A stretch of DNA of 64,000 nucleotides from an uncultured archaeon (GTDB lineage: Archaea; Nanobdellota; Nanobdellia; Pacearchaeales; GW2011-AR1): assembly GCA_902385655.1 (NCBI GenBank), contig CABMGO010000005.1, positions 99,584 to 163,583 on the forward strand, in the 5' to 3' direction. Position 1 is the first letter of the stretch, and every line of letters begins with the position of its first letter. Below the pieces are notes generated by a model. That model did no database searches and had not been told where the DNA came from. It worked only from the letters and a program-made list of their open reading frames with translations. Of this stretch, positions 20,591 through 63,032 are shown piece after piece. Position numbers and translations under genes: made by a program.

Positions 20591-20591
20591 A

Positions 20592-21310: not shown

Positions 21311-21368
21311 CCATTTCAAAGTGTCCTTCCATGCGGAAGGAAAATAAAAAAATAAAATTAAATTATAT

Positions 21369-21848: not shown

Positions 21849-21872
21849 TTCATAACCTCCTTTCAAACTTAG

Positions 21873-22319: not shown

Positions 22320-22329
22320 AAAAATCCTA

Positions 22330-22480
22330 AATGAAACATGTTTATAAACATTTCGCGAAACTATCGACGTAGTTGATATAATTGTATAATTTATAAAAAT
22401 TAAACGGAGTTTGATTTAGTTATGGCTCTGCAAGAGTCATCCCGAATTTTGGTTTGTCTTTATGCAGTTGAGGGGTAAAG
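22330..22480 (-). promoter_or_regulatory. Conserved pilus-regulon upstream module, copy C (TATA/BRE-like element ~25 nt from the ATG plus a family-A unit)
   Basis: Alignment with 14985-15185. Confidence 0.55.
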
Positions 22481-22488
22481 ATTGTCTT

Positions 22489-23624: not shown

Positions 23625-23643
23625 AGATAACAAACATAATAAG

Positions 23644-34083: not shown

Positions 34084-34254
34084 TTTCTTAACTCCTCCCT
34101 CAAAGTCTTTTCAACAAAATCAGAAATCTCAAAACCTTCGTTGATACAATGGATTTTTACTTTTTTCCACAAGTCTTCATCAATCTTTAAACTAGTAGTC
34201 TTTCTCACCATTTTACCAAACTCTCCGAGTATTAAAATTTAGTTTGAGAGTTGG

Positions 34255-34450
34255 TAAGGCTGAACAAAAACGCTTCGAACAAAATTGACTCTGTTCATTA
34301 TATTTTTTGTGAAATGCATTTTTGTGAATTAAAAATGCGGAGCATTGACTGCCGCTAACGGTGAACAAAACGCTTTGAGTAAAACAAATTTCTTTTTCAT
34401 TGGTACGAAATGCATTTTGTGAGTTCTTTTTCGATCGAGCCAACAGCTCG
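34255..34450. repeat. Imperfect ~65-bp direct repeat (GAACAAAA(A)CGCTTYGA...TGTGAAATGCATTTT...) in the upstream region of the giant gene
   Basis: Two copies aligned by eye. Confidence 0.45.
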
Positions 34451-34596
34451 AAATCATTCGAAAAACGCCCTAGACAATTTTCAGTAGTTTTCATCATCCT
34501 CTTTTTATAATTATATACTGTAAAACAACTATTTAAAGCTTTCTTTACAGTATTATAGTATTATGAAATATTTTAATACCATAAATCTAAGAATAA

Positions 34597-35805: not shown

Positions 35806-35820
35806 CAATTTTAAAACACA

Positions 35821-35832
35821 TTTATTTATAAA
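35821..35832 (-). promoter_or_regulatory. TATA box of the leaderless wHTH-KaiC-like gene
   Basis: TTTATAAATAAA ~20 nt upstream of the ATG. Confidence 0.45.
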
Positions 35833-35894
35833 TGTTGCGATATATGACAGTTGTATATGCCTAATAAATAAAACATATGAATTTGACAAGTATA

Positions 35895-36065
35895 TATAAT
35901 AGATATATGTGACATATTAAAAAGATACAAATTTCATTATTTTTACGTGTAAAAAGATATGTGTGACAGATATATATGATATACATATATAATAGATTAA
36001 AAGAACTAGAAGAGGCATATCATATACGAATATGATAGATATATATGATAGATTAAAAGAATGAA
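35895..36065. repeat. AT-rich low-complexity direct repeats (GATATATGTGACA x2; ATAGATTAAAAGAA x2)
   Basis: Visible direct repeats. Confidence 0.45.
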
Positions 36066-36084
36066 AAGTTCATTGATAAATTAA

Positions 36085-36258
36085 AAGGATAATTTTAAAA
36101 GATGATGATGCTGAAGAAATTTTTCAGCTTTCCAAAAGAGTTGGGAAACATAAAACAATTCGAGGGCGGGTTTCGAAGCGTAGCTTCGATAAAGTGGGAG
36201 ATTAGAGAGCTGAAAAGTTTCGACCAAAACAGAGCCATACATGCTCGCGTAAAAAAAT
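36085..36258. repeat. Structured element family S, copy 2
   Basis: Same conserved flanks as copy 1, with different but self-complementary stems (TTTCAGCT/AGCTGAAA; TTCGAAGC-GTA-GCTTCGA). Confidence 0.5.
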
Positions 36259-36273
36259 AAACTCACCTAAGAA

Positions 36274-38613
36274 TCACTCTAGCAACTTCTTCAACTTTTT
36301 CTGCTCTTCAAGAATATTCTTTTCTACAGAATTGACCTTCTTCTTCAAATCTTTTTTAGCTTCTAAAAGCATTTTCTTTCTAACCTCATCATTTTCAGAT
36401 TCCAATCTGTGTTTCTCATGCATCTCAAAAGCACGTTCTTGTTTTTCAGTCTGACTTTGCAATTCCTTTTGTTTTCTAGCTAATTCATCATCAAATTTTT
36501 TCTCCATTACAAGTTTTTCATTTTTTATTTGTTTCTCAAAATCACTCTTCTGAGATTCCATCGTAGCAACAAACATATTTTTTTGTTTTTCAAGCTCAGC
36601 AGATTCCTCTTTCTTAAGATCTTCAACCTGTCGATTAAATTCTACTTTCTCTTCTATAAACTCTTTACCCAATTTGCTCTTTTCAACTTCCAAATTTTTC
36701 TTCTCAATAATTTTATCATGTAAACTCTCTTTAAGCTCCTTCAGTTGAGCCATTTGAGCAGCACTAATTTCCTTATTATTCTTAAGTTCAGAAATTTTTT
36801 TCTTTAGCTCTTCATTCAGTTTATTCAAAGACTCAGCCTGAGTAAGTACCTCTTTTCTAAACTGTTCTTCTTCTCTCGAAAGTTGCTTTTTTTCATCAGC
36901 TACCTGCAAATTCAAATTTTTTATCTGAGAATTATATTTATTTTGTAAATTAATCTCAAAAGATTTCTCGTGTTCTTCAAATTTCTGCTTAAACTTGTTC
37001 TCTAATTCAACTCGTCTAGATTTGTATCTTTCAGCCAATTCGACACGTTCTTTTTTCAAAGACTGCAAAAGATCTTGATTAACTTTCTTCTGACTTTGTT
37101 CAGCCGAGAATAATTTATTATATTTTTCTTCCAAATTGCGTTCTTCTTTTCTATTTTTTTCCACAAGCTCTTTTTCTTCTCTGCCAAACTGTTCTTCTAG
37201 CTTAAGCTCTTCAGATTCCAATGTTTTTCTAGATTCCTCCCTAAGAGAATTAAGAAGATTTTTTCTTACAGATTCATTTTCAAATTCCAACTTTTTTCTT
37301 TCTTGAGCTTCAAACTTTCTCTCTTCCTGTTTTTCTTGTCTCACTAATTCTTCCTCTCTTCTTTTAAAACGATTTTGCAAAGCAAGTTCTTCAGATTTTA
37401 ATTTCTGATTTAATTTTAATTCAATCTCTCGTCTTATTTTATTTTTTAATGCCTCGCTAATTTGTTCACGCTTTTTCCTTTCCTGCTCCTTTTCTTCTTT
37501 CTTAATTAAATTTTCTAATTTCTTATCTAAATCAGATTCTCTTTTCTGTAAAGAATTGCTATATGCTTCTCTTTCTAATCTGAGCTGATTTTCCTTAATT
37601 TTCAAATCCCCAATTCTTGATTTAAGATTTTTTAGAAGAGAAACTTGAGTTCCACTAACTCCTTTCGCACTAAGTTCTGCAGCCTGACCATTCAAGCCGT
37701 TCTTCAATTTTCTTAAAGATTCAGATTTGTTCGCAAGATCATTTTTCAACTTTTGCTCTTGAGATTTCAGTTTTTGTTTTTCCTTATCAACACTTTCTTT
37801 AATACGTTTGACTCTCAAATCGCTTTTTTTCTGAAATTCTAATTCTAAACTCTTTTTCTGATTATCCAAAGCTTTTTTCAACTGTTCCTTGAGTTCTGCA
37901 GAATATTTTTTCTGAAGTTTAGACTTCTCCCTTTTCAGATTTTTCTCCTCTTCCTTACTCAACTCTTCTTCAATTTCCTTTTCAGCCTCTGACTCATCTA
38001 CTTCTTCCTCTTTCTTCCCTTTCTTCTTGCCTCCCTTAAAGAAAAACAACTCTTCGGACTTGGAAGGAATTTCTTTAGAAACGCCTAATGCAACCTTGCC
38101 GGATTTCCCAATCAAAAGATGTTGTCGAGCATATGCATGATAGTCCTGATCATCACCAAGAATATGGTTTCTCAGCCAATTAGCCATAAAAGTCCTCGCT
38201 TCAGCGATTAAATTCAAAAGACTAAAAGAAGTAATAGTGCTCTTATCCGAACGATATAACTGAGTATATAGTTTATCTTTAAAATTTAAAAAATACTCCA
38301 CAAAAGCCAAATGAATTTTTCGGTGCATCTCCAATTTAGGGTACTCAATTCTTTTCATATAACCTTCTTCATAAGAAAAATGTTCTCGAGCATATTTATC
38401 AGTCAAATCAATAATCTCTCGGATCCTTGCAACTTCTTCCCCCTCCTTAGTTTCAACAAGCAATCGATTGAGTATTCCAAGTAATCCTTGATGTTGATGA
38501 TCGATGTTAGCCTCTTCTACGCTCATCTTGGGAATCCAAACGACTGGCTTGCCTTTAGCAATAACTAACCTCCCCTGCTTAATTTTGCCTATAACCTCTT
38601 TTTTATTTTTCAT
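36274..38613 (-). CDS. Hemerythrin-domain protein with ~600-aa K/E-rich coiled-coil extension
   Basis: N-terminus IDHQHQGLL...HFSYEEGYM...HRKIHLAF...WLRNHILGDD (bacteriohemerythrin pattern); the rest is heptad-like KE repeats. Confidence 0.55.
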   Translation of the reverse strand: MKNKKEVIGKIKQGRLVIAKGKPVVWIPKMSVEEANIDHQHQGLLGILNRLLVETKEGEEVARIREIIDLTDKYAREHFSYEEGYMKRIEYPKLEMHRKIHLAFVEYFLNFKDKLYTQLYRSDKSTITSFSLLNLIAEARTFMANWLRNHILGDDQDYHAYARQHLLIGKSGKVALGVSKEIPSKSEELFFFKGGKKKGKKEEEVDESEAEKEIEEELSKEEEKNLKREKSKLQKKYSAELKEQLKKALDNQKKSLELEFQKKSDLRVKRIKESVDKEKQKLKSQEQKLKNDLANKSESLRKLKNGLNGQAAELSAKGVSGTQVSLLKNLKSRIGDLKIKENQLRLEREAYSNSLQKRESDLDKKLENLIKKEEKEQERKKREQISEALKNKIRREIELKLNQKLKSEELALQNRFKRREEELVRQEKQEERKFEAQERKKLEFENESVRKNLLNSLREESRKTLESEELKLEEQFGREEKELVEKNRKEERNLEEKYNKLFSAEQSQKKVNQDLLQSLKKERVELAERYKSRRVELENKFKQKFEEHEKSFEINLQNKYNSQIKNLNLQVADEKKQLSREEEQFRKEVLTQAESLNKLNEELKKKISELKNNKEISAAQMAQLKELKESLHDKIIEKKNLEVEKSKLGKEFIEEKVEFNRQVEDLKKEESAELEKQKNMFVATMESQKSDFEKQIKNEKLVMEKKFDDELARKQKELQSQTEKQERAFEMHEKHRLESENDEVRKKMLLEAKKDLKKKVNSVEKNILEEQKKLKKLLE

Positions 38614-39083
38614 CTAACTTCAATTTTATCTGCAGATTGTTTAATTAGAGCCACCAACTTCTCGTCAGTACTTCCTTTCGGAAGAACAAAAACTAAGTCT
38701 ACATCCCATTCATGAGATCTATACAGAATAAATGAAAAGAACTTTACCAAGACATCCAAATTATTTCTTATAGCAAGATTAGTTATAGAATCAAATAAAA
38801 TAGTTACTTTTCCAGTAAAAGACTGTTGCGATTGATTTATAGCAATACTGAGAGAAGTTAGATTTTCACCAGACAAATAAATAACACCATTTTCAGAAGG
38901 CTTGTCAATTGTATCAATAAATAGAAAATGTCTGCCCTTAGAAACTTTCACTAGATCATCCTTAAGTAAATCATATGGTTTTGAAGATAAGACTAAAACA
39001 GTATTGTCCGCAGACTTTTTTAGAGATTCAATAAAGTTTTTTTCTAATTTTTCCGGCCTACTCAAAACGAGTTTAATCATCAT
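38610..39083 (-). CDS. Degenerate KaiC/RecA-like (DUF835-like) protein, paralog of 40381-40911 and 41286-41819
   Basis: Shared FID(T/C)..., (I/V)(L/I)FD(S/N), ADK(I/V)EV pattern; no Walker A. Confidence 0.45.
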   Translation of the reverse strand: MMIKLVLSRPEKLEKNFIESLKKSADNTVLVLSSKPYDLLKDDLVKVSKGRHFLFIDTIDKPSENGVIYLSGENLTSLSIAINQSQQSFTGKVTILFDSITNLAIRNNLDVLVKFFSFILYRSHEWDVDLVFVLPKGSTDEKLVALIKQSADKIEVR

Positions 39084-39888
39084 CGCCCCTCACGAAATCT
39101 TTAGACTTTATATAAAAAGCAAGTGCAACAGACACATAAAAAAAAGTATATAGTAAGTCGATAGGATGCCCAGCATAATAAGTGTTATTCTGGCTCATAT
39201 TAGCGAATATCTGGTCATAAACCAGTCGAGTTAACATTCCTCCGCCGAGAATAACCCAATGCCAACCATATTGACTACCTTCGAATAAAATTGGCCAAAC
39301 AAGATAAATAATTAGTAGCAAAACAATAACATCATACAGAATATATGAATCTTGTATAAAATGACTAAAACCAACATTTCCTTCTCGGATATCCTCAGAA
39401 ACATCATTAAAAAGTATAACTCCTCCAATAACAAGGCCAGTAACAACAAGAAGATAAATTAATCTACTGGATGGTCTAAACCCTACTGAAATAAAATAGA
39501 CTAAAGAAATAATCAAAGCGACATACGCCAAACTCCAAGCCAGATCCGGATAGCTCCCCAAAGGAGTAACTTTGTCAAACACGGCCTCAGCAATTAACCA
39601 AAGAAGATCGCCTAAAAAGAATAAAAAAATAGAAATTATTAGAAAAAGCTTACCTTCTTTTTCTCTAGGAAAATTTTGAGAAATTTTTCGATAAATAAAA
39701 ATTGTAGAAAACAACGCTAAAAGAGCAAGAATAACGATAAAGATATTTGCAATAGCATGACGATAATATTGAAAACTAGTCCCAAAAATAAAAATTGCTT
39801 GGAAGACATAAACAACAACTGCAGCAATCAAAATCCAAAAAAATAATCTGCTACTATAAGAACTACTGACTTTGACACCTTTTTTCAT
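39073..39888 (-). CDS. Polytopic membrane protein (7-8 TM), function unknown
   Basis: Hydrophobicity pattern; overlaps neighbours within the operon. Confidence 0.5.
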   Translation of the reverse strand: MKKGVKVSSSYSSRLFFWILIAAVVVYVFQAIFIFGTSFQYYRHAIANIFIVILALLALFSTIFIYRKISQNFPREKEGKLFLIISIFLFFLGDLLWLIAEAVFDKVTPLGSYPDLAWSLAYVALIISLVYFISVGFRPSSRLIYLLVVTGLVIGGVILFNDVSEDIREGNVGFSHFIQDSYILYDVIVLLLIIYLVWPILFEGSQYGWHWVILGGGMLTRLVYDQIFANMSQNNTYYAGHPIDLLYTFFYVSVALAFYIKSKDFVRGDDD

Positions 39889-39952
39889 GATAATCTCAAA
39901 GAAAATATATATTTAAATGTTACATTCTCGGCAAAAATAGATTCAGCAACCC

Positions 39953-40330
39953 CTAACCCTTTATCTCGAATTCTTTCCGAACCAACTCCAAAATCTCGTC
40001 ATTCGAAATTGGTTTTTTCACAATACCAACTAATTTTCTTACTCCCTTCAAATCAGACTCAGTCAATTCAGAACCAGTCAAAAAGATTACTTTTAATTTC
40101 GGAAATTTCTTAGCAAGATCAACTCCGCTCTCACCATCTAACATAAATTCTATAATTGCCAAATCAGGATTTTCTGACTTAATTTTCTGGATAGCCTCTT
40201 CGATATTATATGCTTGAAAAGTTCTGAACCCATTAAATTCTAAAATCTGAGAAATGGCAACAGCAGTCTGTACGTGATCATCTACGATAGCAACAAGCAC
40301 CTTTTTAGAACCAACACTGCTCTCTTTCAT
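39953..40330 (-). CDS. CheY-like receiver protein (REC3)
   Basis: VLVAIVDDH ... IIEFMLDGESG ... FLTGSE. Confidence 0.7.
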   Translation of the reverse strand: MKESSVGSKKVLVAIVDDHVQTAVAISQILEFNGFRTFQAYNIEEAIQKIKSENPDLAIIEFMLDGESGVDLAKKFPKLKVIFLTGSELTESDLKGVRKLVGIVKKPISNDEILELVRKEFEIKG

Positions 40331-40380
40331 AAAATAAGTATACAAAAGAGATTTTTAAATTTTATGAAAATTAAAATAAA

Positions 40381-40911
40381 TCATTTAACTAACACGGTGC
40401 TGTCAACAAAGAGAGAAATATCGGAAACAATCTTCTTTTTACCTTCGAGCATGATCCAATAGAGTGCTTTTATTTTTTTCTGCTGAACTCTGGACATAAT
40501 ACTATTCAAAAATCTTAACACAAATACCTCTGAATTGTATAGAAGCAAACTATCCAAATTATCAAATATCACCAGATCATACTTGCCAATAATAGAAGAA
40601 AATTTCAAAGAAAGTTCAGTTAAAGCGTGCGGAGATGGAAGATAGTACACTTTGTCATTTGAAACAGCTTTCATCAGTTTAGAAGAGACACAGTCAATAA
40701 AAAAACAGTTAGAATAGTCTATTCTATTATCGTCAAAAGTAGTCATCAAAGTTGAAGATAAACGATTTGTAGTTATTACACAAACTTTCTTATATTTTTT
40801 TAAAAGCAATTTGTAAGTCTCAAGAATATTTTTCTCAGGATTGAGATTATCACAAATAGCTAAAACATTGTAGTTCTTATTCAAGTTTGAAACTATTTCT
40901 TTACTCGCCAT
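40381..40911 (-). CDS. Degenerate KaiC/RecA-like (DUF835-like) protein X2
   Basis: Paralog of 41286-41819; KaiC-like Walker B region (VIFDNLDSLLLYN) but the P-loop is replaced. Confidence 0.5.
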   Translation of the reverse strand: MASKEIVSNLNKNYNVLAICDNLNPEKNILETYKLLLKKYKKVCVITTNRLSSTLMTTFDDNRIDYSNCFFIDCVSSKLMKAVSNDKVYYLPSPHALTELSLKFSSIIGKYDLVIFDNLDSLLLYNSEVFVLRFLNSIMSRVQQKKIKALYWIMLEGKKKIVSDISLFVDSTVLVK

Positions 40912-41285
40912 TATTCTTTTAATATTTCTCCTATTCTTTTTTTAAATGCATCCAAATCCAATAAAGGTTTATGAAAATATTCTATAGGTTTCAAAGTTTT
41001 AACCAGATCTCTACCTGCCTGACCCAATTCAACAACAGTAAGAAAAGCTACTTTTTGATTTTTTAATTTAGGATCCTTTCTAATAATCTGAAGAACTTCT
41101 CGGCCAGACATTTCAGGCATCAAAATATCTAGAAGAACCAAGTCAAATTTTTGTTTTTTCAAAATATTTAGAGCATCTTTTCCAGTGTTAACTGCCTTAA
41201 CAACATAACCCATCTTAGTTAAAAGAAGTTTAACAGAATCAGCAATATCTGGCTCGTCATCAACAACTAAAATTTGTTCCTCCAT
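40911..41285 (-). CDS. CheY-like receiver protein (REC2)
   Basis: ILVVDDEPDIAD...FDLVLLDILMPEMSG...FLTVV...K. Confidence 0.8.
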   Translation of the reverse strand: MEEQILVVDDEPDIADSVKLLLTKMGYVVKAVNTGKDALNILKKQKFDLVLLDILMPEMSGREVLQIIRKDPKLKNQKVAFLTVVELGQAGRDLVKTLKPIEYFHKPLLDLDAFKKRIGEILKE

Positions 41286-41819
41286 TTAAATAACCTCCAC
41301 CTTATCTGCAAACAAAGACAGATCTTCCATTACTTCTTTACCAGTATCATGAGAAAGTAAAAAAACTCCTCGAAGCTTAGAGAAATTTATTTGGTGCATT
41401 AAATTATTTAAAAACTGTAAAACTGGAACAGTATCATTATACAAAAGTAAAGAGGAAACGTTATCAAAAATTATACAATCTGATTTATGAATTTCCTCGC
41501 CTAACAAAAGAGCCAAATTTTGCAAAGCACGAGGAGAGTCTAAATATTTACACTGTTTGGACACAACTTGTTGCAAGGTAAGAGAAGAGATACAATCAAT
41601 AAAACTGAACTTAGAGTAATCAATTTCCTCTTTTCTAAATCTTTCGGTTAGAACAGTAAATGGTTTATCAACACTTACAAAACAAATCCGCCTATATCTC
41701 GGAGAAACAAGTTTAACAATTTCTAGCATAGACTCAACGGGATCTGAATTTCGAGAAATAACGACCAAATTTTTTATTTTGGGCAATTCACCAACGATAT
41801 TAGCAATCTTTAGACTCAT
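41286..41819 (-). CDS. Degenerate KaiC/RecA-like (DUF835-like) protein X1
   Basis: Paralog alignment with X2. Confidence 0.5.
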   Translation of the reverse strand: MSLKIANIVGELPKIKNLVVISRNSDPVESMLEIVKLVSPRYRRICFVSVDKPFTVLTERFRKEEIDYSKFSFIDCISSLTLQQVVSKQCKYLDSPRALQNLALLLGEEIHKSDCIIFDNVSSLLLYNDTVPVLQFLNNLMHQINFSKLRGVFLLSHDTGKEVMEDLSLFADKVEVI

Positions 41820-42193
41820 TAGTCCTCCAAAACCTTCTTCAATCGCTTTCTAAAATCAGCAATATCTAAAATAGGTTTTTGAAAGTACTCTACAGGTTTC
41901 AAGGCCTTAATAATTTCTTTTCCAGCTTGACCAAGTTGAACAACAGTGAGGAAAGCTACTTTTTGATTTTTTAATTTAGGATCCTTTCTAATAATCTGAA
42001 GAACTTCTCGGCCAGACATTCCAGGCATCATAATATCGAGGAGAACTAAATCAAATTTTTGTTTTTTCAACAAATTTAAAGCAGACTTACCATCGACAGC
42101 AACAACAGATTCGAGTCCTTCGCCGTCGCAAAGCATTTTAATAGAAGTAGCTATATCAGACTCATCATCAACTATCAACACCCTTTTAGCCAT
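41819..42193 (-). CDS. CheY-like receiver protein (REC1); start moved to ATG (ORF-track start is TTG)
   Basis: VLIVDDESDIATS...FDLVLLDIMMPGMSG; C-terminal half encoded by DNA nearly identical to REC2. Confidence 0.8.
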   Translation of the reverse strand: MAKRVLIVDDESDIATSIKMLCDGEGLESVVAVDGKSALNLLKKQKFDLVLLDIMMPGMSGREVLQIIRKDPKLKNQKVAFLTVVQLGQAGKEIIKALKPVEYFQKPILDIADFRKRLKKVLED

Positions 42194-42209
42194 ATCACGA
42201 TAAAACAAT

Positions 42210-45200
42210 TTAAGTATTTAAACTCTCCGAATTTTTCGTCAGAGGAGATTTAAATGGCAACGTAAAAATAAACTTACTTCCTTTTCCTTTTTCACTTTCA
42301 ACCCAAATTTTTCCACCATGAGTCTCGACAATTCCCTTACAGATAGTAAGCCCTAATCCGACACCCTTATGTTTAAGTTTGTAAGAGGGACTAATTTGAG
42401 AAAATGGCTTAAATATTTCCGATTGCTTTTCTTTTGATATACCGATACCCTCATCTTTTACACTTACAACAACCTGATTATCTCTTTTCGAAATTTCTAC
42501 ATGAATATGGCTATTTTCAGGACTAAATTTTATAGCATTACTTAACAAATTAGTAAAAACCTGTTTTATTCTAAATGGATCCACAAATAATATTGGCGTC
42601 TTTACACTATTAAAGCTAATTTTTATGTGACTTTGTTCAGCAAGTGCAGAAACAGTAGAAATTGCATCTTTTGCAATAATATCCATTTCTGAATCTTCCG
42701 GAATAACTTTCAAACTTTTATTTTGTATTGTCGCAACATCCAAAACATCTCCAATCAATTGATTTAAGGTTTTCATGTTTCTAGTAATAAGGTCTACACT
42801 GTTTTTTTGTTGTTCTGATAAATTACCCATATATCCCTCTTGTAACATTTGTGCCTGAATTAAAATTGGAGTCAGTGGTGTTTTCAATTCATGCGAGGTA
42901 AATGCTAAGAACTGATTTTTCATTTGATCAAGTTCTTTTAACTTTTCATACGCATCCTCCAATTTCCTTTTAGCCTCTACATCAGAACTAATGTCTCTTA
43001 CAGTTGCCTGCAGAAATTTTTTCCCATCCTTCTCGACTAAACTTAATAGGACTGTTGCAGGAAAATCTCCATCCCCTATTCGTTTATGAGTCCACTCAAA
43101 ATAATTCGACCCATTTTTAACAGCCAAATTAATCATTTTCTTAGCTTTAACAGAAGACAATTCCCCGTCAGACTGATATTTAGGAGAAACATCTATTGGG
43201 CCAAGAGAAATAAATTCTTTTTCATCCTTACAATTAAACATTTTCAGAGTCATGGGATTTCCAGAAGTAAACTTAAAAGAAACAGTATCTAAAGTCATGA
43301 TAGCATCAGCCGAACCTTCATACAAAATCCGATATTTTTTTTCGCTTTCAAGAATTTTTCTTTCCGATGCCTTCAAGTCAGTAATATCTTCAGAAATACC
43401 TAAAAGATATTTAGGACTCTTCTTTTCATCGAGAATGGGAATTTTCTTAGTATGTAAAAGTCTTTCTCCCCTCGGAGTCTTAATTGGTTCTTCAGGAATA
43501 TCTAAAAGTTTTTTCTTATCTAGCACATCTCTATCTTTTTTAGTAAAAAAATTTGCCTGTTTTTTAGGAAAAAAGTCATAATCATTCTTGCCGTAAAAGT
43601 TCTCTCTTTTTTGACCGAGTAATTCTTCTCCAGCTTTATTGAACAGTTCAAATCTCAAATCTTTAGCATCTTTTACAAAGATCATGTCTGGAACATTCTC
43701 AACAACCGAATTCAAGAAAGCAGTCTGCTTTTGAAGTTCAGAAGTTCTGTCTATAACAATTTTGTCCACATTCTCTTTCTCTCGTATAAGTTCATCTTCT
43801 GCTTTTTTTATTTCATCGATATTAATAATTACACTAACAATTTCCTTTAATTTACCTCTTTCATATATGGGGTTCCAAGAGTGAGAAACCCAATAGACTC
43901 TTTTGTTTTTCCCAATAATTCTATATCTTAAATTCTTTCCAGGCATTCCCTTAACAGCCTCAGAAAGAAATTTTTTAACAAGCGGTATGTCCTCTGGATA
44001 AAAAATATCCGGAACAGTGCCTACAAGATCTTTAGCCGGCCAGCCAAAAACTTCCAAAGAGGTCGGACTTAAATAAGAAACAACTTTATTTGACAAAGTA
44101 AGCATCATTACAGCATTTGAACTTTCAGAAATAAGCTTGTACTTTTCCTCACTTTCTTGTAGCTTTTCCTCTGTTTTTTTTCTTTCAGTAATGTCTTGAG
44201 CCGTTCCGTAAAGGCAAACAATTTTTCCATGCACATCACGTTTTACAGCACCTCTAGCGAGAATCCACTTTCCATAAATATCTGGCTTTCGATACATTAG
44301 TTCAAGCTCGTATGGCTTTCCAGTTTCCATAGCCGTTTTCACAGCCGCATCCAGCAACTTCGCATACTTTGGTGCATAAGCTTTTAGATGATTAACATAA
44401 TTAGGAGTGGGATCATTTAGTCCGATATTATAAATTCTACGATATTCTGCAGACCAGACAATACTATCTGTAGGAATATCCCAATTCCAGCTCCCGATAT
44501 GGGCAATCTGTTGTGCTTCTTCAAGATCTTTCTCAGTCTTTCTCCACTGAGTTACATCTCTGAAGATACCTATCTGAAAAATTTCATCACCCAATTTTAA
44601 AGAAGTAGCAGAAATATCTGCATAAAAAATAGATCCATCTTTTCTGACCACAGGCAAATTTGAAACTATTTTAATTTTTCCTTCAGCTTGTAATTTAAAT
44701 TGTTTAAGAGCATATGAAAGATCTTTTTTTGGATGAATATCATTTACACCAAGTCTAAGAACTTCCTCGCGAGTATACCCTAAAAGATTACAGAAGGCAT
44801 CATTAGCCATAATGAATTTCTTAGAGTTTAAGGTAGCCAAAACAACTCCATCAACAGCGTTATTAAAAATAGCTTTAAACTTCTCCTCGCTCTCCTGTAG
44901 TTTTTCTAAAAAAATTTCTTTTTCAGTAATATCTCGATTAGTTCCTCGGTAACCTCTAAAATTTCCAAAGTCATCAATAATTGGATTGCCACTTGCTTCC
45001 AAGAGAACCAAAGATCCATTTTTATGCAAAGTCCAATTACCCAAATCTTTCATTGGAGCTCTTTTCTTAACAAGAGAATCATAGATAGCTTTGACCCTCT
45101 TAGCTTCGCCAGGAGGCATAAAATCAAAATGAGTCTTTCCTATCATTTCTTCAGGACGATAACCCAAAATATCCTTAACAGAAGAACTCAAATAAGTATA

Positions 45201-45662
45201 CTTTGCATCCTTATCAACTTCCCAAATAATATCGCTAGTTGACTCAACAATATCCCTAAACCTTTTTTCACTCCGTTTTAACAAATCTTCAGACATCTTA
45301 GTTTTAGTTATATCTTGAGAAAAAATTAAAACACCTTCAGAAACAGGATTTATCGAAAGAAGAAATGTCCCCTTAGAACCATCGGGATAGACAAAAACAT
45401 TTTCCATACTCACAGATTTTCTAGTCTTCAAAACCTGTTTAATTTTAGAAAAAAGTTCGGTCTTTTCTATTCCAGGATAACACTCCGCCATAGTATTCCC
45501 TATTAATTCACTACGCTTTTTTCTTGCATGCTTTTCTAAAGAATTATTTGCATAAATATACCTGTATTCGCCATCAATAATCTGCGCACCCTCGATAACA
45601 TTATCCAGGGGTGCATACTTTTCAGCAACAAGATGCAAAAAAGCCTCAAAATCCTCTTCCAT
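42210..45662 (-). CDS. Multi-PAS sensor histidine kinase (1150 aa; >=6 PAS/PAC, HisKA, HATPase_c)
   Basis: H-box FLAFTSHELKTPL; N/G boxes NLLSNAIKFS...VKDEGIGIS...GVGLGLTICK; repeated PAS cores. Confidence 0.9.
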   Translation of the reverse strand: MEEDFEAFLHLVAEKYAPLDNVIEGAQIIDGEYRYIYANNSLEKHARKKRSELIGNTMAECYPGIEKTELFSKIKQVLKTRKSVSMENVFVYPDGSKGTFLLSINPVSEGVLIFSQDITKTKMSEDLLKRSEKRFRDIVESTSDIIWEVDKDAKYTYLSSSVKDILGYRPEEMIGKTHFDFMPPGEAKRVKAIYDSLVKKRAPMKDLGNWTLHKNGSLVLLEASGNPIIDDFGNFRGYRGTNRDITEKEIFLEKLQESEEKFKAIFNNAVDGVVLATLNSKKFIMANDAFCNLLGYTREEVLRLGVNDIHPKKDLSYALKQFKLQAEGKIKIVSNLPVVRKDGSIFYADISATSLKLGDEIFQIGIFRDVTQWRKTEKDLEEAQQIAHIGSWNWDIPTDSIVWSAEYRRIYNIGLNDPTPNYVNHLKAYAPKYAKLLDAAVKTAMETGKPYELELMYRKPDIYGKWILARGAVKRDVHGKIVCLYGTAQDITERKKTEEKLQESEEKYKLISESSNAVMMLTLSNKVVSYLSPTSLEVFGWPAKDLVGTVPDIFYPEDIPLVKKFLSEAVKGMPGKNLRYRIIGKNKRVYWVSHSWNPIYERGKLKEIVSVIINIDEIKKAEDELIREKENVDKIVIDRTSELQKQTAFLNSVVENVPDMIFVKDAKDLRFELFNKAGEELLGQKRENFYGKNDYDFFPKKQANFFTKKDRDVLDKKKLLDIPEEPIKTPRGERLLHTKKIPILDEKKSPKYLLGISEDITDLKASERKILESEKKYRILYEGSADAIMTLDTVSFKFTSGNPMTLKMFNCKDEKEFISLGPIDVSPKYQSDGELSSVKAKKMINLAVKNGSNYFEWTHKRIGDGDFPATVLLSLVEKDGKKFLQATVRDISSDVEAKRKLEDAYEKLKELDQMKNQFLAFTSHELKTPLTPILIQAQMLQEGYMGNLSEQQKNSVDLITRNMKTLNQLIGDVLDVATIQNKSLKVIPEDSEMDIIAKDAISTVSALAEQSHIKISFNSVKTPILFVDPFRIKQVFTNLLSNAIKFSPENSHIHVEISKRDNQVVVSVKDEGIGISKEKQSEIFKPFSQISPSYKLKHKGVGLGLTICKGIVETHGGKIWVESEKGKGSKFIFTLPFKSPLTKNSESLNT

Positions 45663-50088: not shown

Positions 50089-50673
50089 ATGAAACAGAAT
50101 GATCAAGCAAAGGAACTTGAAGAATGTTTAATCAAAATAGGATTGAAAATAGCTAAACGAAATGAGGGTGCCTTGTTCGTAGTTGGGAAAACAAAATATT
50201 CTCCACTTGTCGAGCAAGCTGTTCCCAAGTTTAAAGCTCAAAAAAATCCAAAATTGTTAGAATCTCTTGCACTTATGGATGGTGCAGTGATTTTAGATAA
50301 AGATGGGACTGTAAAAGCTTATGGAGCAAGAATTAAGTCGAGTACAACTTTCAAGAACCACGGAACAAGACATGCCGCAGCACTTGGAGCCTCAAAAGAA
50401 AAAGGAAACATTTGTATTTTAGTTTCGGAAGAAGACAAAAAAATAAGAATTTTCAAAAATGGAAAAATGATAATGCAAATTGATCCAAAAGAAAAAAATG
50501 TTGAAAGTTCAATTTCTCCCGCAGCAGATATTTTAGAAACAATTGGTGCCGGAACACTGGGAACCATAGGAGCAAGTATCCTTGCGCCAGGTCTGGGAAT
50601 TACACTTCTACCTGGAGTTGTTGTTTTTGGAGCAGTACACTATTTCGGCAAGAAATTATTGAGTAAAAACTAA
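50089..50673 (+). CDS. Diadenylate cyclase (DAC domain, DacZ-like) with C-terminal TM
   Basis: GALFVV, DGAVIL, GTRHAAAL, VSEE motifs of the DisA_N/DAC domain. Confidence 0.65.
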   Translation: MKQNDQAKELEECLIKIGLKIAKRNEGALFVVGKTKYSPLVEQAVPKFKAQKNPKLLESLALMDGAVILDKDGTVKAYGARIKSSTTFKNHGTRHAAALGASKEKGNICILVSEEDKKIRIFKNGKMIMQIDPKEKNVESSISPAADILETIGAGTLGTIGASILAPGLGITLLPGVVVFGAVHYFGKKLLSKN

Positions 50674-57053: not shown

Positions 57054-57254
57054 ATGATAACAAGTTTGGATATAAGTTGGAAATTAGTAAGTATAATAGT
57101 TTGGGAATTAGTCTGGAAAGGCCTAGCACTTTATAGAGCTGGAAAGAAACAACAACCTTGGTGGTTCTTCTTTTTATTAATAATTAATAGCATAGGAATT
57201 TTACCAATTATTTATTTGATAATTTCTAGAGACAAAAAGAAAAAGAGAAAATAA
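57054..57254 (+). CDS. Small membrane protein with lysine-rich tail
   Basis: Two TM helices. Confidence 0.35.
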   Translation: MITSLDISWKLVSIIVWELVWKGLALYRAGKKQQPWWFFFLLIINSIGILPIIYLIISRDKKKKRK

Positions 57255-57464: not shown

Positions 57465-58682
57465 TTAATGAAGCATCCTATCAAGGTATGCTGCTTTCTT
57501 ACTCTTTCTAATTCTTCTTGGCTTATCAACTCTCACAGTAGCATCAGCTTTATCATAAATTTTTTTCAATTTTTTCTTGAAATCCAAGAAAGTTCCTTTC
57601 TTAATTTCCTTTCTTGCTTGTTCCATTAACTTTGTTAAATAATACAAATTATGAAATGTCGCCAAACGATATCCTACTGCTTCTTCCTGATTCAGATGGT
57701 ATCGAATATAAGATCTAGTATAATTCTTACAAACAAAACAGTCACAATTTTCGTCCAAAGGCTTATCATCAAACTCATGTTCCCTTCGAGTAATTCTTAA
57801 TTTTCCATTGCTAGTAAAAATAGTTCCTCTTCTTGCATTTTGCGTCGGAAAACGAGAATCAAACATATCAACACCATGAGAAATCGCTTCAAGAATTTCC
57901 ATAGGATTTCCAGCACCCATTAAATAACAAGGTTTATTTTCCGGAATAATTGATTTATGAATCTTAATCATTTTCATTTCCTCTTCAATTGTTTCTCCCA
58001 AAGCCAAACCCCCAACAGAGTATCCATCAAAATCAATTTCCCTTAATTCCTTGCAAGATTTTTTTCTCAAATCAGGATGAATTCCTCCCTGTGTAATTCC
58101 CCATAATAATTGTTTTTTATTTTTAGGAAGTTTTTCCTGAAGATGATCGTGCTCGATTTTACATCTCTTTGCCCACATCGTCGTTCTCTCAACAGCAAGT
58201 TCGATTTCTTTTTTAGAGTGTTCAATCAAAGGCATTGTATCTAAACACATTGCAATATCGCTTCCCAAATCAAGTTGGATTTGCATATCTTTTTCAGGAG
58301 TGATAAATACTTTCCTGTTATCAAATGGATTTCTAAACCAAACTCCTTCGTCGTTACTTCCCAAATAAAGTGCCCTAGAATACATCTGAAATCCACCAGA
58401 ATCAGTAACATTAATTCCCTTAAAATTCATAAACTTCCCAATTCCGCCCATTTTTTTTATTAAATGTTCTCCCGGTCTCAAATGTAAGATTAAAGTATTC
58501 GAAATAACTGCCGGACACTTCATTTCATGCAAATCCAAAGAGCTAATATGCTTCACAGAAGTTTTCGTAGCTACTGGCATAAAAAAAGGAGTCTCAATCT
58601 TTCCTTTCTTAGTTGAAATTACACCAACACGTGCATCAGTTTTCTTATCCTTGTATTTTATTTTAAAAATTTGGCCAGCCAT
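57465..58682 (-). CDS. tRNA-guanine transglycosylase (TGT family; probably archaeosine-type, lacking a PUA extension)
   Basis: TIM-barrel TGT motifs; Zn site CDCFVC...H. Confidence 0.75.
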   Translation of the reverse strand: MAGQIFKIKYKDKKTDARVGVISTKKGKIETPFFMPVATKTSVKHISSLDLHEMKCPAVISNTLILHLRPGEHLIKKMGGIGKFMNFKGINVTDSGGFQMYSRALYLGSNDEGVWFRNPFDNRKVFITPEKDMQIQLDLGSDIAMCLDTMPLIEHSKKEIELAVERTTMWAKRCKIEHDHLQEKLPKNKKQLLWGITQGGIHPDLRKKSCKELREIDFDGYSVGGLALGETIEEEMKMIKIHKSIIPENKPCYLMGAGNPMEILEAISHGVDMFDSRFPTQNARRGTIFTSNGKLRITRREHEFDDKPLDENCDCFVCKNYTRSYIRYHLNQEEAVGYRLATFHNLYYLTKLMEQARKEIKKGTFLDFKKKLKKIYDKADATVRVDKPRRIRKSKKAAYLDRMLH

Positions 58683-58720: not shown

Positions 58721-60505
58721 TTATCTTGCTAACTCAGGACTAACAAGAGACTTAAGTAATCTTTCTTTATTCTTAAACTCAGGCTTACCAACAACTCTTA
58801 CAACCTCGTCTATAGAAATTTGTCCTCGAAGAAGCTTGTCCAAAGCAGCCATCGCCAATGGACGCATTCCTTCCGACATTGCTTGTTCAAGATATTTAGT
58901 CCCAGACCTTACTCCTTGTCCAATCATATCTTTAGTAGTATCAGAAATTTGCCATACCTCAGTTATAGCCGATCTACCAGCAATCCCCGAATGATTACAC
59001 TGATCACACCCTTCTCGAGAAGGCCTGTAAAGAACAATATCTTCCCTAAATAAAGGTTGTTTAAATAAGGAGTTAACATTGGCATTAGAATCGATTACCT
59101 TGCAGTGAGGACAAGAATCTCTTACAAGTCTTTGAGCAAATACTGCCTTAAGAGTATCTTGTAGTTCATAATCTTCAACCCCCATTTTTTGTAAACGTAA
59201 AAGAGCACCATTAGCATCATTTGTGTGAAGAGTCGCATAAGCTAAATGTCCTGTCAACGCTAAATTAATAGCAACATTAGCAGTTGTTTTGTCTCGAATT
59301 TCTCCAAGCATAGTTGTGTCAGGATCATGACGTAAAATCTCCCTAAGAATCTCTTCAAATGAGTTTACTCTGCTAACCTGACATTGATGCACACCATGTA
59401 TTGTGTACTCAACCGGATTTTCAATTGTAATTATTTTCTGATCCGGAGTATTGCTATGAGAAATAAGTGCATTCAGGGTTGTCGTTTTTCCAGAACCTGT
59501 TGGGCCTGTGGCAATAACAATCCCATGTGGTTCAGTAGAAATGTCCTCAAACTGCCTAACAACTTCAGGAGAATAACCTAACTGCCCAAGAGTCAAAAGT
59601 TTTCCTTTCTTAAGTAATCTAATATTAACATTCTCGCCATAAATACTTGGGAGAACAGAAACTCTCGCAGTGTAACCTTTTGGCAAATCTTCTCTTTCAG
59701 AAATGCCTATCCAACTTATCTTATCAAAATCAAAAGCACCACTCTGAGTTTTTCTATGTTCATGAACGATAATTCCATTGTCAGCAGAATCAACTTTAAT
59801 CGCACCAATCACTCGAGTGAACAAATCATTTCCAACCGGCCGTTCCTTTCTTTCTGAAAATGGACTTACAACCGGATCATCTTGTAGGAGGTCATTAACT
59901 CTATATCTTACTCTAGGACCTCTCTCAGTCCATTCAAAATGAATATCGCTTGCAGAAAGAGAAAAAGCCCTTCTATAAACCTGACGAAGAACATTTCTCG
60001 CTGCCAGATCAGTACCTATTTCAAAGCGAGATTCATCTTCAACATGTGCTTTATCTTTTAGAAATTTTTCTCTAGCCTCGGGAGAACCAACCATCTTAAA
60101 TAAAAATTTATAGTCACTATCATCAAACTGAATTGGAACTACACTATGTGAACCAATTTTTTTTGCAGCATAACTCGCTGGAAGAAGCTGTTCAAATGGC
60201 CAATCAAAATCTACAAGTCTGATTGAATCTCCAGCCTCACTAATTTGGCTACTATTAACATGAACCCCAACTATTAATTCCTTATGAGTATAAGAAACAA
60301 TCATGGGAAGTATTCCTCGTTTGACAGCAAGCTCAGTATACGCATTATGAGAAAAATAATCTGGCCTTGTCGGAGGAAAACCCTTAGCGTCAATAGGTCT
60401 TTGAGATTCAACAAGAACTGGAGATTCTTCTATTGCATCGACAATTGAATCTAAACTGTCAAAACCTCGCGATTCACGACTTACAAACTGTCTCTCAAGA
60501 GTCAT
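58721..60505 (-). CDS. Bacterial-type GspE/PilB secretion/pilus ATPase
   Basis: Walker A GPTGSGKTTT, Asp/His boxes, tetracysteine motif CPHC...CDQC; GC visibly higher than surroundings. Confidence 0.8.
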   Translation of the reverse strand: MTLERQFVSRESRGFDSLDSIVDAIEESPVLVESQRPIDAKGFPPTRPDYFSHNAYTELAVKRGILPMIVSYTHKELIVGVHVNSSQISEAGDSIRLVDFDWPFEQLLPASYAAKKIGSHSVVPIQFDDSDYKFLFKMVGSPEAREKFLKDKAHVEDESRFEIGTDLAARNVLRQVYRRAFSLSASDIHFEWTERGPRVRYRVNDLLQDDPVVSPFSERKERPVGNDLFTRVIGAIKVDSADNGIIVHEHRKTQSGAFDFDKISWIGISEREDLPKGYTARVSVLPSIYGENVNIRLLKKGKLLTLGQLGYSPEVVRQFEDISTEPHGIVIATGPTGSGKTTTLNALISHSNTPDQKIITIENPVEYTIHGVHQCQVSRVNSFEEILREILRHDPDTTMLGEIRDKTTANVAINLALTGHLAYATLHTNDANGALLRLQKMGVEDYELQDTLKAVFAQRLVRDSCPHCKVIDSNANVNSLFKQPLFREDIVLYRPSREGCDQCNHSGIAGRSAITEVWQISDTTKDMIGQGVRSGTKYLEQAMSEGMRPLAMAALDKLLRGQISIDEVVRVVGKPEFKNKERLLKSLVSPELAR

Positions 60506-60558
60506 TTAAAGTCTGATAAAAAGAACTATTTAAGCATTATCAAAAAACAAAATATATA

Positions 60559-61293
60559 TCAAAATCTCCTACTCTGCAAAGAAAGATAGATCTTCCTTTC
60601 CTTCTGATCACCGTCTGCACCAGTTTCATACTTATATCCGCCACGCAAACTAACTACGCCAATTTTTTTTTCTACATAAGTTTCAAATTCATTCTGACAA
60701 ACAGTAAAGACAGTATTGAAATAATGATTCTTTATTTTTAAAAAAACACCAACAGCACCAAGGTCTGACTCGCCAATAAACAAACCCGCACGATATTTAA
60801 CTCCCGCACTTGACTCTGCACTAATCGTAGTTGCATCCCTTAATTTCCGTATACCCCGATCAATGTCTCTTGCGAATTTATACTTCTCAATTAAGGTTTT
60901 ACCAAAAGCAGAGTAAGCCTCTCTTTCAAAAGGAAACGACCGTAAATCATCTGGATTGTCATAATCATTATTATTTACAAATCTGAATGAATTCACATCT
61001 TGTAGTTCGTCCTCGAGATTGTGAGCATACCTCTCTAAAAAACTCTGGGTTCTAGCCTGGGAAACAGAAGCATCCGAGTAGCCCTCGTATAAGAAAATAC
61101 TATTAGCTATCCTTGCACGTCTCTCAGTTTTATCCATCTCCGTTAAAGAAACACCTTGCCCGCCATGATCGTTGACCAAAGTTTCCATAGTAGAGGGTAT
61201 ATAGTTGATAGATTCATCTTCCTGAGAGAATGCAGCAAACGGAGCTAAAACTAGTCCTGCTGCAAGAACCAATTTTTTTATGATCTTTTTCAT
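60559..61293 (-). CDS. Secreted protein with bacterial-type signal peptide (AFS|QE), C-terminal Phe; unknown function
   Basis: Signal peptide; elevated GC; adjacent to the GspE-like gene. Confidence 0.4.
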   Translation of the reverse strand: MKKIIKKLVLAAGLVLAPFAAFSQEDESINYIPSTMETLVNDHGGQGVSLTEMDKTERRARIANSIFLYEGYSDASVSQARTQSFLERYAHNLEDELQDVNSFRFVNNNDYDNPDDLRSFPFEREAYSAFGKTLIEKYKFARDIDRGIRKLRDATTISAESSAGVKYRAGLFIGESDLGAVGVFLKIKNHYFNTVFTVCQNEFETYVEKKIGVVSLRGGYKYETGADGDQKERKIYLSLQSRRF

Positions 61294-61305: not shown

Positions 61306-62982
61306 TCACATCTCTTCAAGAACATCGATACCAAGTAAACCTAAGCCTGTCTTCAAAACATTTCTGAAAGCATCAATTAACTTTAACCTAAAAGCTTCTT
61401 CTTTACTTCCAATCACAGGATGAGCATGATAGAATTCGTTAAAAATTTGTGCAAGCTCATAAGAATAATTTGCAATTAAATTTGGAGCTAATTGGTCATA
61501 AGCACTTTTCACAACATTTGGAAAATTCTGCAACTTAGTCAATAGAGCAGTTTCTTGAGGAGACAAGTCAAAAATCTCTACTTTTTGCTTCTTACTTTTT
61601 ACTTTTCTCAAAATAGAAGATGCACGAGCATAAGCATAAAGCAAGTATGGTCCCGTATTTCCTTCGAATTCTAAAAATTTATCAATATCAAAAACAACAT
61701 CGTTCTCTCGATAATTCTTCAAGTCACCATAAATAATTGCGGAAAGAGCAATCGAATGTGCTCGATGATCCAAATCCAAGTCAGATAACTTCGCTTCTCT
61801 CGAAAGTAAATTCTTCTTAGCAATTTCATAGGTCTCTTTAATTACTTCTTTCATCATAACAGTCTTCCCTTTTCTTGTCGCAAATTTTTTTCCATCTTCA
61901 CCAAGATACAAACCGTGAGCGACGTGCACACAATCGTCTGAAAAATCATAGCCCAATAATTTCAAAACTCTAAAAACTTGTTTGAAATGAAGTTTCTGTT
62001 CTTGTCCAACTTCATAAATCATCCTATTGAATTTGTATTTTTCAAAACGATCAATAGCAGCAGTCAAATCTCTAGTTGCATATAAACTAGTTCCGTCATT
62101 TTTCTTTATCAAAACAACCCCCAAACCTTCCTTGTCCAAATCAACAACCATTGCACCCTCGCTCTCTTTCAACAAACCCTTCTTTTCCAATTTATTAACA
62201 ACGGGCCCCATCTTATCATTATATAAACTTTCTCCAGAAATTACATCAAACTTCACACCCAAAAATTCATAAATTTCATTAAAGTCTTTCAAACTTAAAT
62301 CTCTAAATTTTTTCCACAAAGCGAGATTCTTTTTATCCCCTTCTTCCAACTTTCGAAACTCATCTCTAGCTGCTTGTTCATACTGCTCATCATTTGCCCG
62401 AACATATAATTCTAACAAATGCGCAATAGGGTTATCTTTCAGTTTTTTTTCATCTCCCCAATTATTATACCCAACAATTAACTTACCAAACTGAGTTCCC
62501 CAGTCACCTAAATAATTTATCTTTACCGTTTTATATCCTAAATAACTAGCAATATTTGAAATCGAACCACCAATAATTGTAGAACGCAAATGACCAATAC
62601 CGAATGGTTTCGCAATATTCGGAGAAGATAAATCAATAACAATCTTCTTTCCATTACCTTCCTTACTTGAACCATATCCTTTTTTTGTCGCTTCCTTCAA
62701 AACCTTCTCAGCCAAAAATTTCTTGTCAATGAAGAAATTAACATAAGCAGATTTTACTTCAACACCTGAAATTTCCTTAGGTAAATTTTTTCTAATTTTT
62801 TCAGACAAATCTGTCGCAATGGCCAAAGGATTCTTTTTCTCAATTTTAGCCAAAGCAAAACAAGGAAAAGCAAAGTCTCCCATTTCTTGTTGGGGAGGAA
62901 CCTCTAAAAACTTCTCAATTTCTCCCTTTTTCAACTTTCCAGACAGAACTTTCTCAAGCACATTGACAACTATATCTTTCAT
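61306..62982 (-). CDS. argS: Arginyl-tRNA synthetase (start moved to ATG MKDIV; ORF-track start is TTG)
   Basis: SPNIAKPFGIGHLRS (HIGH-like), DALR anticodon-binding region. Confidence 0.9.
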   Translation of the reverse strand: MKDIVVNVLEKVLSGKLKKGEIEKFLEVPPQQEMGDFAFPCFALAKIEKKNPLAIATDLSEKIRKNLPKEISGVEVKSAYVNFFIDKKFLAEKVLKEATKKGYGSSKEGNGKKIVIDLSSPNIAKPFGIGHLRSTIIGGSISNIASYLGYKTVKINYLGDWGTQFGKLIVGYNNWGDEKKLKDNPIAHLLELYVRANDEQYEQAARDEFRKLEEGDKKNLALWKKFRDLSLKDFNEIYEFLGVKFDVISGESLYNDKMGPVVNKLEKKGLLKESEGAMVVDLDKEGLGVVLIKKNDGTSLYATRDLTAAIDRFEKYKFNRMIYEVGQEQKLHFKQVFRVLKLLGYDFSDDCVHVAHGLYLGEDGKKFATRKGKTVMMKEVIKETYEIAKKNLLSREAKLSDLDLDHRAHSIALSAIIYGDLKNYRENDVVFDIDKFLEFEGNTGPYLLYAYARASSILRKVKSKKQKVEIFDLSPQETALLTKLQNFPNVVKSAYDQLAPNLIANYSYELAQIFNEFYHAHPVIGSKEEAFRLKLIDAFRNVLKTGLGLLGIDVLEEM

Positions 62983-63032
62983 AAAAAGTACATACAAATA
63001 ATGTTTAAAAACTCACCCATACAGGGAGTTTT

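Follow-up and report, generated by a model that had tools for sequence, protein, structure and literature searches.

We describe here two adjacent genes at positions 58721–61293 of a 64,000-nt stretch of archaeal DNA (‘the window’). One encodes a secretion ATPase related to the bacterial GspE and PilB motors, the other a small secreted protein. The ATPase gene (58721–60505, minus strand) is an open reading frame (ORF) of 594 aa that comprises a clade-specific N-terminal region, an N2 domain, and a C-terminal domain (CTD) with a Zn-finger-like tetracysteine subdomain. The second gene (60559–61293, minus strand) is an ORF of 244 aa with a predicted Sec signal peptide, and represents an orphan family. 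The two ORFs are co-directional and lie, as an initial annotation of the window had stated, between the genes for arginyl-tRNA synthetase (ArgRS; 61306–62997, minus strand), the conserved upstream neighbor, and tRNA-guanine transglycosylase (TGT; 57465–58682, minus strand), directly downstream of the ATPase. From ArgRS to TGT, the intergenic gaps are 12, 53 and 38 nt; the signal-peptide gene begins 12 nt past the ArgRS stop codon. That annotation took the pair for a probable horizontal acquisition, for example from a bacterial host or neighbor. We consider it probable that the ATPase is of ancient bacterial origin and has been domesticated in its archaeal host, and that the gene beside it is unrelated.

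Family scores, motifs and fold all bear out the assignment of the ATPase to the bacterial GspE/PilB type. The Pfam model T2SSE (PF00437) matches it with 294 bits (cutoff 24.9). Among NCBIfam models, GspE (TIGR02533) scores highest, with 318.5 bits, about half of its equivalog cutoff of 630.25, followed by PilB (TIGR02538; 289.2 bits, cutoff 675.65), PilT (TIGR01420; 141.9 bits, cutoff 319.1) and FlaI (NF058587; 49.7 bits, cutoff 550). By these scores, the protein is a divergent member of the GspE/PilB subgroup, and the equivalog of neither GspE nor PilB. It falls outside the PilT/PilU class, too, as it scores below the cutoff and has an N-terminus of 170 aa ahead of the N2 domain. Against PDB sequences, phmmer gives 232 bits for GspE (4pht), 229 for PilF, ~205 for PilB and ~100 for PilT. 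The archaeal chains, GspE2 (49.6 bits) and FlaI (44 bits), match in the P-loop core only. The window also encodes an archaeal FlaI-type ATPase, as had been recognized (18818–20341, minus strand; 378 bits to the FlaI model). It lies ~40 kb from the GspE/PilB-type ATPase, and the two share 28% identity across 169 aa.

The P-loop and the tetracysteine motif that had been singled out are both present, and both are conserved. The former (Walker A, GPTGSGKTTT; 59477–59506, minus strand; aa 334–343) is invariant at all ten positions in the four members of the ATPase's archaeal clade (described below), and across 42 aligned homologs G334–K340 are invariant and T341–T343 at least 90% conserved. Residues of the Asp box, of Walker B with its catalytic Glu, and of the His box (E362/P364/E366, D394/P395/G401/E402/R404 and T418–H420/H427) are invariant in the 42-sequence alignment. 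So are the four cysteines of the tetracysteine motif, CPHC...CDQC (58997–59113, minus strand; C465, C468, C500 and C503), a putative Zn site that is invariant in the four orthologs as well. An AlphaFold model of the ATPase (pLDDT 86) superimposes in Foldseek on PilB cores with TM-scores (target) of 0.87–0.90 and rmsd values of 2.7–3.3 Å, at 33–36% identity; the superposition on 5tsh_F has a TM-score (target) of 0.90 and an rmsd of 2.7 Å, and GspE 4pht is matched with E = 5e-39. As modeled, the fold of N2 plus CTD matches both PilB and GspE.

The N-terminal 170 aa (59996–60505, minus strand) are different: by sequence, they are specific to the clade. The N-terminal domain had been listed among the bacterial hallmarks of the protein, and this fails all sequence tests. 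In the four orthologs, neither PF05157 (T2SSE_N/N1) nor any other Pfam model matches the region at E ≤ 10; hhalign against bacterial N-termini gives a probability of 0.8%; and phmmer with aa 1–170 against 1.84 billion representatives returns, apart from a single weak repeat match, only the clade members P0003 and P0004. What is left of the claim is a hint from AlphaFold and Foldseek. With the whole ATPase model as query, ~500–520 columns align on full-length GspE 4pht compared with ~410 on core-only chains (~90–110 extra), and a GspE N1-like fold is possible, and plausible, on this basis.

The archaeal clade consists of four clusters, at 100, 64, 55 and 44% identity to the ATPase, all in Pacearchaeota-like contigs. 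The 64% ortholog comes from a Logan assembly, the 55% ortholog (P0003) from contig L001 of a Candidatus Pacearchaeota metagenome-assembled genome (MAG; GCA_017999545.1), and the 44% ortholog from JGI metagenomes. In a search of 5.8 billion proteins, all other relatives were bacterial, at ~42% identity or less. Contigs were searched as well, both in a one-genome-per-species set of 185,579 species, queried with the alignment of the four orthologs, and among metagenome contigs. The best 80 loci in the species set are all bacterial (Omnitrophota, Planctomycetales, Sumerlaeota, Verrucomicrobia and Neisseria among them), with no archaeal genome and no new clade member. In the metagenome contigs, the relatives among the matches listed reach 41% identity at most, and the known JGI orthologs are absent from those listed. 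In a neighbor-joining (NJ) tree of 53 sequences (368 core columns, rooted on FlaI, 100 bootstraps), the four archaeal ATPases are monophyletic in 99 replicates; they are nested among bacteria in 98, and sister to all bacteria in the other 2. A bacterial origin is the best reading of these data, and is supported by them, because a small archaeal clade nests within bacterial sequences and every other relative is bacterial and no closer than ~42%. The initial annotation had allowed that phylogeny might instead place the ATPase in an archaeal clade; such a clade exists, in the narrow sense of four members inside the bacterial radiation.

Two features of the tree weigh against this reading. The sister group of the clade is unstable (best 34 of 100, for a Rhodobacteraceae-type sequence) and offers no identifiable donor; and the tree is distance-based, with a single distant outgroup and deep branches that are saturated and weak, so that long branches might, in principle, have produced the nesting among bacteria. 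Alternatively, the ATPase might be an ancient archaeal GspE/PilB paralog, inherited vertically and kept only in this lineage, with no transfer at all. The want of a donor would fit such a history, as would the long-standing synteny and full compositional adaptation described below. Against it stand the confinement of the clade to four clusters, the lack of archaea among the best 80 loci, the nesting in 98 of 100 bootstraps, the tetracysteine subdomain shared with GspE and PilB, and the disparity between the scores for GspE/PilB structures (200–230 bits) and those for archaeal GspE2 and FlaI (44–50 bits). We regard vertical descent without transfer as very improbable, and bacterial descent as the better account.

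The locus of the Rhodobacteraceae-type sister has an ORF layout like that of an ordinary secretion or pilus operon, and gives no functional clue. Patescibacteria were considered as the donor and rejected: their high-scoring proteins of ~1000 aa are tandem GspE–GspE fusions, each half of which is 35–38% identical to the ATPase and so no closer than Firmicute GspE (40%). These fusions of two complete GspE/PilB modules recur in Patescibacteria/Parcubacteria (P0005–P0026; L047, 8002–11169; L074, 5916–8732), and their second module has a variant P-loop, GPTSAGKT.

When was the gene acquired? The ATPase adjoins the ArgRS locus in every relative for which there is enough contig, down to 44% identity (L001, L002, L004, L005 and L006). 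The order is ArgRS–signal-peptide gene–ATPase–TGT in L002, L005 and L006 (in L002, the TGT slot is a truncated, unannotated ORF), and ArgRS–164-aa ORF–TrmB–ATPase–TGT in the Pacearchaeota MAG. For the 44% ortholog, one contig (L004) has the ATPase next to a C-terminal fragment of ArgRS at the contig end, and another (L003) has it next to a radical SAM gene. TGT flanks the ATPase in the three closer lineages. That the pair is ‘wedged’ between housekeeping genes had been taken to suggest insertion; the clade inherited this gene order from its ancestor, however, and TGT is itself a bacterial-type gene, the second at this locus. The TGT scores 405 bits with TIGR00430 (cutoff 307) versus 150 bits with the archaeosine TGT model (cutoff 350), and among PDB chains 326 bits with the Thermotoga maritima enzyme (2ash) versus 79.5 bits with archaeosine TGT (1iq8). 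By sequence it is a queuine-type enzyme, like those of bacteria and eukaryotes, rather than an archaeosine TGT, and it fits the class of bacterial queuosine genes known in DPANN archaea (PMC8204110). Neither QueA nor QueH was seen near it.

Composition points the same way. The 2.6-kb patch that holds the two genes is indeed the GC-richest of the window, at 37.7% versus 33.4% (z = 3.0, in the top 0.14% of sliding windows), although the excess is ~4 percentage points and not the ~8–10 estimated by eye. The per-gene excess is z = 1.8, and two further genes of the window are as GC-rich. In the ATPase gene, third-position GC (0.221, z = −0.37) and synonymous codon likelihood (z = −0.01) are host-typical, and its GC content, 0.382, is close to the 0.377 that host codon usage would give a protein of this composition, which is enriched in Arg, Asp, Pro, His and Val and depleted of Lys, Asn and Tyr. 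The orthologs in L001, L003 and L005 have a similar GC bump, with third-position GC of 0.22–0.25. The bump is due, then, to amino-acid composition rather than to synonymous codon use, and windowed GC and codon usage, which had been put forward as a check for transfer, do not point to a recent one for the ATPase. Nor do the flanks of the gene pair resemble those of a recent genomic island: the repeats there are short, AT-rich and attributable to chance, an integrase is missing, and no tRNA gene is near (the sole one in the window is at 25 kb), while codons are host-like and relatives have the ATPase at the same site. No viral relatives of either protein were found in IMG/VR, and scans with PHROGs and PADLOC returned nothing meaningful. 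A mobile element or virus as vehicle was rejected, since flanking repeats are lacking and the ‘phage’ matches, at 37% identity or less, look like bacterial contigs. The matches in question include CAKLQH020000014.1 and other records labeled ‘Acinetobacter phage MD-2021a’ (92–305 kb), which carry gspE/epsE. By these sequence comparisons the transfer of the ATPase is old, not recent, because the position on the ArgRS side is shared, third-position GC and codons are host-typical, and no bacterial protein exceeds ~42% identity. The proposal of inter-domain transfer survives in part: the nested clade supports a bacterial source, but for the same three reasons a recent acquisition from a bacterial host or neighbor is not supported.

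These comparisons also bear on the possibility of an artefact of assembly or binning, in which a bacterial fragment would be chimeric in an archaeal contig. Two adjoining genes here are bacterial-type, and the source is a metagenome assembly, as such an artefact would lead one to expect. Yet independent assemblies from NCBI, JGI and Logan repeat this gene order, with archaeal neighbors (TrmB regulators, and ABCE1/RLI in L001, L002, L005 and L006), the ATPase has the codon use of the host, and across gaps of 12–53 nt there is no break in composition at the gene ends. The window is archaeal by content, with aCPSF1, the diphthine synthase Dph5, TrmB regulators and the FlaI-type ATPase; Rfam and tRNA scans contributed nothing on the domain to which the host belongs. 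We give an artefact next to no chance.

The protein next to the ATPase tells a different story. Its signal peptide (aa 1–23; nt 61225–61293) has a KKIIKK stretch, a hydrophobic core and a predicted cleavage site, AFS|QE. It had been described as a protein with a bacterial AXA-type signal peptide and a C-terminal Phe. A signal peptide and the Phe are present, but AXA-type Sec signal peptides are not bacteria-specific, and the final residue of the family, which amounts to nine clusters in both single-sequence and profile searches of the 5.8 billion proteins, is Phe in four clusters, Leu in one, and Arg or Lys in four. With the Phe terminus not conserved and no family match, the protein does not qualify as a bacterial outer-membrane beta-barrel. 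No match was found in Pfam, NCBIfam, PHROGs, PADLOC or PDB sequences, and no bacterial homolog among the 5.8 billion proteins. The low-confidence AlphaFold model (pLDDT 48) suggests a long helix (aa 121–155) and a C-terminal meander of seven beta strands (aa 157–241), for which Foldseek finds nothing below E = 0.09, the barrel-like matches being non-significant. The gene is absent beside the ATPase in L001, L003 and L004; conversely, four contigs (L007–L010) have a more distant homolog without the ATPase. In these four (e.g. L007, 9792–11398; L008, 1231–3294), a conserved protein of 65–66 aa with two transmembrane segments always precedes the homolog, and a radical SAM gene resembling KamA (lysine-2,3-aminomutase) follows it. 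The secreted protein is, on the sequence evidence, a lineage-specific, fast-evolving orphan that nothing connects to a bacterial origin or to coupling with the ATPase, and only one sublineage has it beside the ATPase. The joint transfer of the two genes finds no support here, given the lack of bacterial homologs and the loci (L001, L003, L004 and L007–L010) in which they are unlinked.

A recent cassette of both genes, taken from a bacterial host or neighbor, would account for the GC-richest 2.6 kb of the window (z = 3.0), for the bacterial type of the ATPase, and for the mildly atypical codons of the signal-peptide gene (third-position GC z = 1.8, codon likelihood z = −2.2), values that are to be expected among 59 genes. 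It would not account for the ~40–42% identity at which bacterial matches top out in the 5.8 billion proteins and in both sets of contigs, for the host-typical third-position GC and codons of the ATPase, or for a chromosomal position common to four divergent lineages; the signal-peptide protein lacks a bacterial homolog and is linked to the ATPase in one sublineage only, and marks of mobile elements are missing. A recent cassette is already largely refuted, and we leave it only a very slim chance.

We turn to the rate at which these genes evolve. Compared with the closest relative, L005, amino-acid identity and non-synonymous (dN) and synonymous (dS) divergence are 90%, 0.066 and 1.73 for ArgRS; 92%, 0.052 and 0.78 for TGT; 93%, 0.048 and 0.96 for TrmB; and 79%, 0.148 and 1.40 for IleRS. 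The corresponding values are 64%, 0.301 and 1.53 for the ATPase, and 47%, 0.440 and saturated for the secreted protein. The ATPase itself changes fastest in its N-terminal region, where identity is 45%, compared with 70% in N2 and 72% in CTD. With omega at ~0.2, these alignments indicate that the ATPase is under purifying selection, yet evolving 4–6 times faster than its neighbors, which is unusual for the GspE/PilB family. The neighbors have similar dS values, which gives no support to allelic replacement as an explanation for the low ATPase identity to L005, though with synonymous sites near saturation it may still have occurred. The ATPase is most likely an active hexameric motor, because its catalytic residues are intact, it is under purifying selection, its ORF is intact in four lineages, and its predicted fold is that of PilB and GspE.

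What might this motor drive? The only T2SSF platform visible in the window is that of an archaeal type IV pilus core (16326–20341, minus strand; Pfam T2SSE and T2SSF), which consists of the FlaI-type ATPase and a platform split into two ORFs (17268–18509 and 16326–17171). The surrounding region (15203–23633, minus strand) is a complete archaeal-type pilus locus, with at least six further small ORFs that have pilin-like N-termini. We propose that a single bacterial motor gene of the GspE/PilB type was acquired in the ancestry of a small Pacearchaeota-like (DPANN) lineage, and was then inherited vertically at the ArgRS locus. Its synonymous sites would have shifted fully to the AT-rich usage of the host, leaving the GC bump as the footprint of a conserved protein's composition. 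The ATPase would have lost its bacterial partners while carrying a clade-specific N-terminal domain, and the 244-aa secreted protein would have formed no part of the transferred cassette. At present, the ATPase probably would dock on a platform of the T2SSF family, for which the archaeal pair at 16.3–18.5 kb is the candidate, and serve as a second type-IV-filament motor for attachment, uptake or secretion. The absence of partner genes nearby, set against the operon-like loci of bacterial relatives (e.g. L049, whose ATPase lies in a canonical operon-like layout), leads us to this picture of an orphan motor that docks on a platform encoded elsewhere, which we hold tentatively and rate at somewhat less than an even chance.

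A number of observations weigh against such docking. No gene for a platform, pilin, peptidase, GspL or PilM lies within 10 kb of the ATPase in the window, in L001, or in L005 and L006, and our view is that of a 64-kb window, part of a 317-kb contig. The archaeal pilus locus already has a FlaI-type ATPase of its own. The link to type IV filaments is drawn by family analogy, and fast evolution even in the catalytic domain (72% identity, versus 90% for ArgRS) could signify a changed function. Much of this would be expected under the main rival explanation, in which the orphan ATPase has acquired a new function outside type-IV-filament machines, for example as a cytoplasmic or membrane-associated motor, or as a regulator that employs a new N-terminal domain. 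Partner genes are absent nearby although bacterial relatives sit in canonical operons, the first 170 aa are unique by sequence, dN is 4–6 times that of the neighbors with the catalytic domain included, and the pilus locus has its own motor. Other evidence counts against a new function. The GspE and PilB family members of demonstrated function act on T2SSF platforms, and in this ATPase all catalytic and Zn-site residues are invariant. Its modeled N2 plus CTD fold is indistinguishable from those of PilB and GspE, and Foldseek suggests a GspE-like arrangement of N1. Distance from partner genes is, moreover, no anomaly in archaea, where modules of ATPase and platform often work with pilins whose genes lie at other loci (PMC4858521). 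A new function of this kind strikes us as unlikely, though it deserves to be taken seriously.

Docking on the archaeal pair has a bolder form: a hybrid, inter-domain machine in which a bacterial motor, deprived of its bacterial partners and with a new N-terminal adaptor, is wired to an archaeal pilus platform in a DPANN episymbiont. We think this improbable. If true, the ATPase would be a second motor, for instance for alternative extension or for retraction or uptake, of a kind not known from archaea, and the rapid evolution of the ATPase and of the secreted protein would reflect pressure from interaction with the host.

Of the known systems, the ATPase most resembles GspE/EpsE (TIGR02533; PDB 4pht, 4ksr and 1p9r), its best-scoring family, with which it has in common Walker A, the Asp box, Walker B, the His box, the CxxC...CxxC motif, the N2 and C-terminal domains, a comparable overall length and, possibly, an N1-like/N2/CTD arrangement in three parts. 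It differs in scoring half the equivalog cutoff, in an N-terminal 170 aa that cannot be recognized as T2SSE_N/N1 by sequence, in the lack of nearby genes for gspF, gspL, pseudopilins and secretin, in belonging to a single-membrane archaeon, and in its unusually fast evolution. With PilB/PilF (TIGR02538; PDB 5tsh, 5zfr and 5oiu) it shares the core fold, 33–36% identity and the tetracysteine motif, but it scores below the cutoff, lacks the long N-terminus with MshEN/T2SSE_N, and has no pilC, pilM or pilD neighbors. With the archaeal FlaI/pilus ATPases (NF058587; PDB 4ii7 and 2oap) it shares membership of the secretion-ATPase superfamily and the domain of the host, in contrast to its 49.7 bits to their model and its 28% identity over 169 aa to the FlaI-type protein of the window. 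The ATPase is not a new kind of system; it is a well-documented curiosity.

Motors of type IV filaments are usually split by domain, with GspE, PilB and PilT in Bacteria and FlaI-like proteins in Archaea. The one known motor exchange, that of the Tad pilus, runs from Archaea to Bacteria. A long-kept orphan motor of the GspE/PilB type in DPANN would have moved the other way, from Bacteria to Archaea. Should it function with archaeal partners, it would be a measure of how freely motors and platforms can be exchanged at their interface, and it could bear on how tiny symbionts attach to their hosts or take up host material. Pacearchaeota and Woesearchaeota are known to have fixed individual genes of bacterial type, among them the queuosine pathway with TGT, DnaK–DnaJ–GrpE, and murein transglycosylases (Castelle et al. 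2021, PMC8204110). The ATPase is like these DPANN families in being a single bacterial-type gene fixed in Pacearchaeota-like genomes, and would add a gene for the cell surface, or for interaction, to those fixed in Pacearchaeota. The main text of that paper mentions no secretion, pili, PilB or GspE, and T2SSE/PF00437 is absent from two of its supplementary files; our literature searches turned up no account of a GspE/PilB-type ATPase from DPANN archaea.

Several other features of the window deserve mention. ArgRS (61306–62997, minus strand) is a mosaic in comparison with that of the Pacearchaeota MAG (L001, 6914–8602): residues 40–120 and 440–560 are 70–87% identical, whereas the catalytic core, residues 120–440, is 20–42% identical, a pattern that suggests intragenic replacement of the core in one lineage. 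Between TrmB and TGT lies a hydrophobic ORF of 66 aa (57054–57254, plus strand), with a called gene of equal length and relative position in L005 (14652–14852) and in L006. A protein of 194 aa (50089–50673, plus strand) resembles diadenylate cyclases, and scores far under the curated cutoffs of every matching model. The region 27037–45662 (minus strand) encodes a signal-peptide protein of 2348 aa (27037–34083), a KaiC-like ATPase (34597–35889), an unannotated protein of 779 aa, and a multi-PAS histidine kinase (42210–45662). Several small ORFs at 39953–42208 may be receiver-type regulators.

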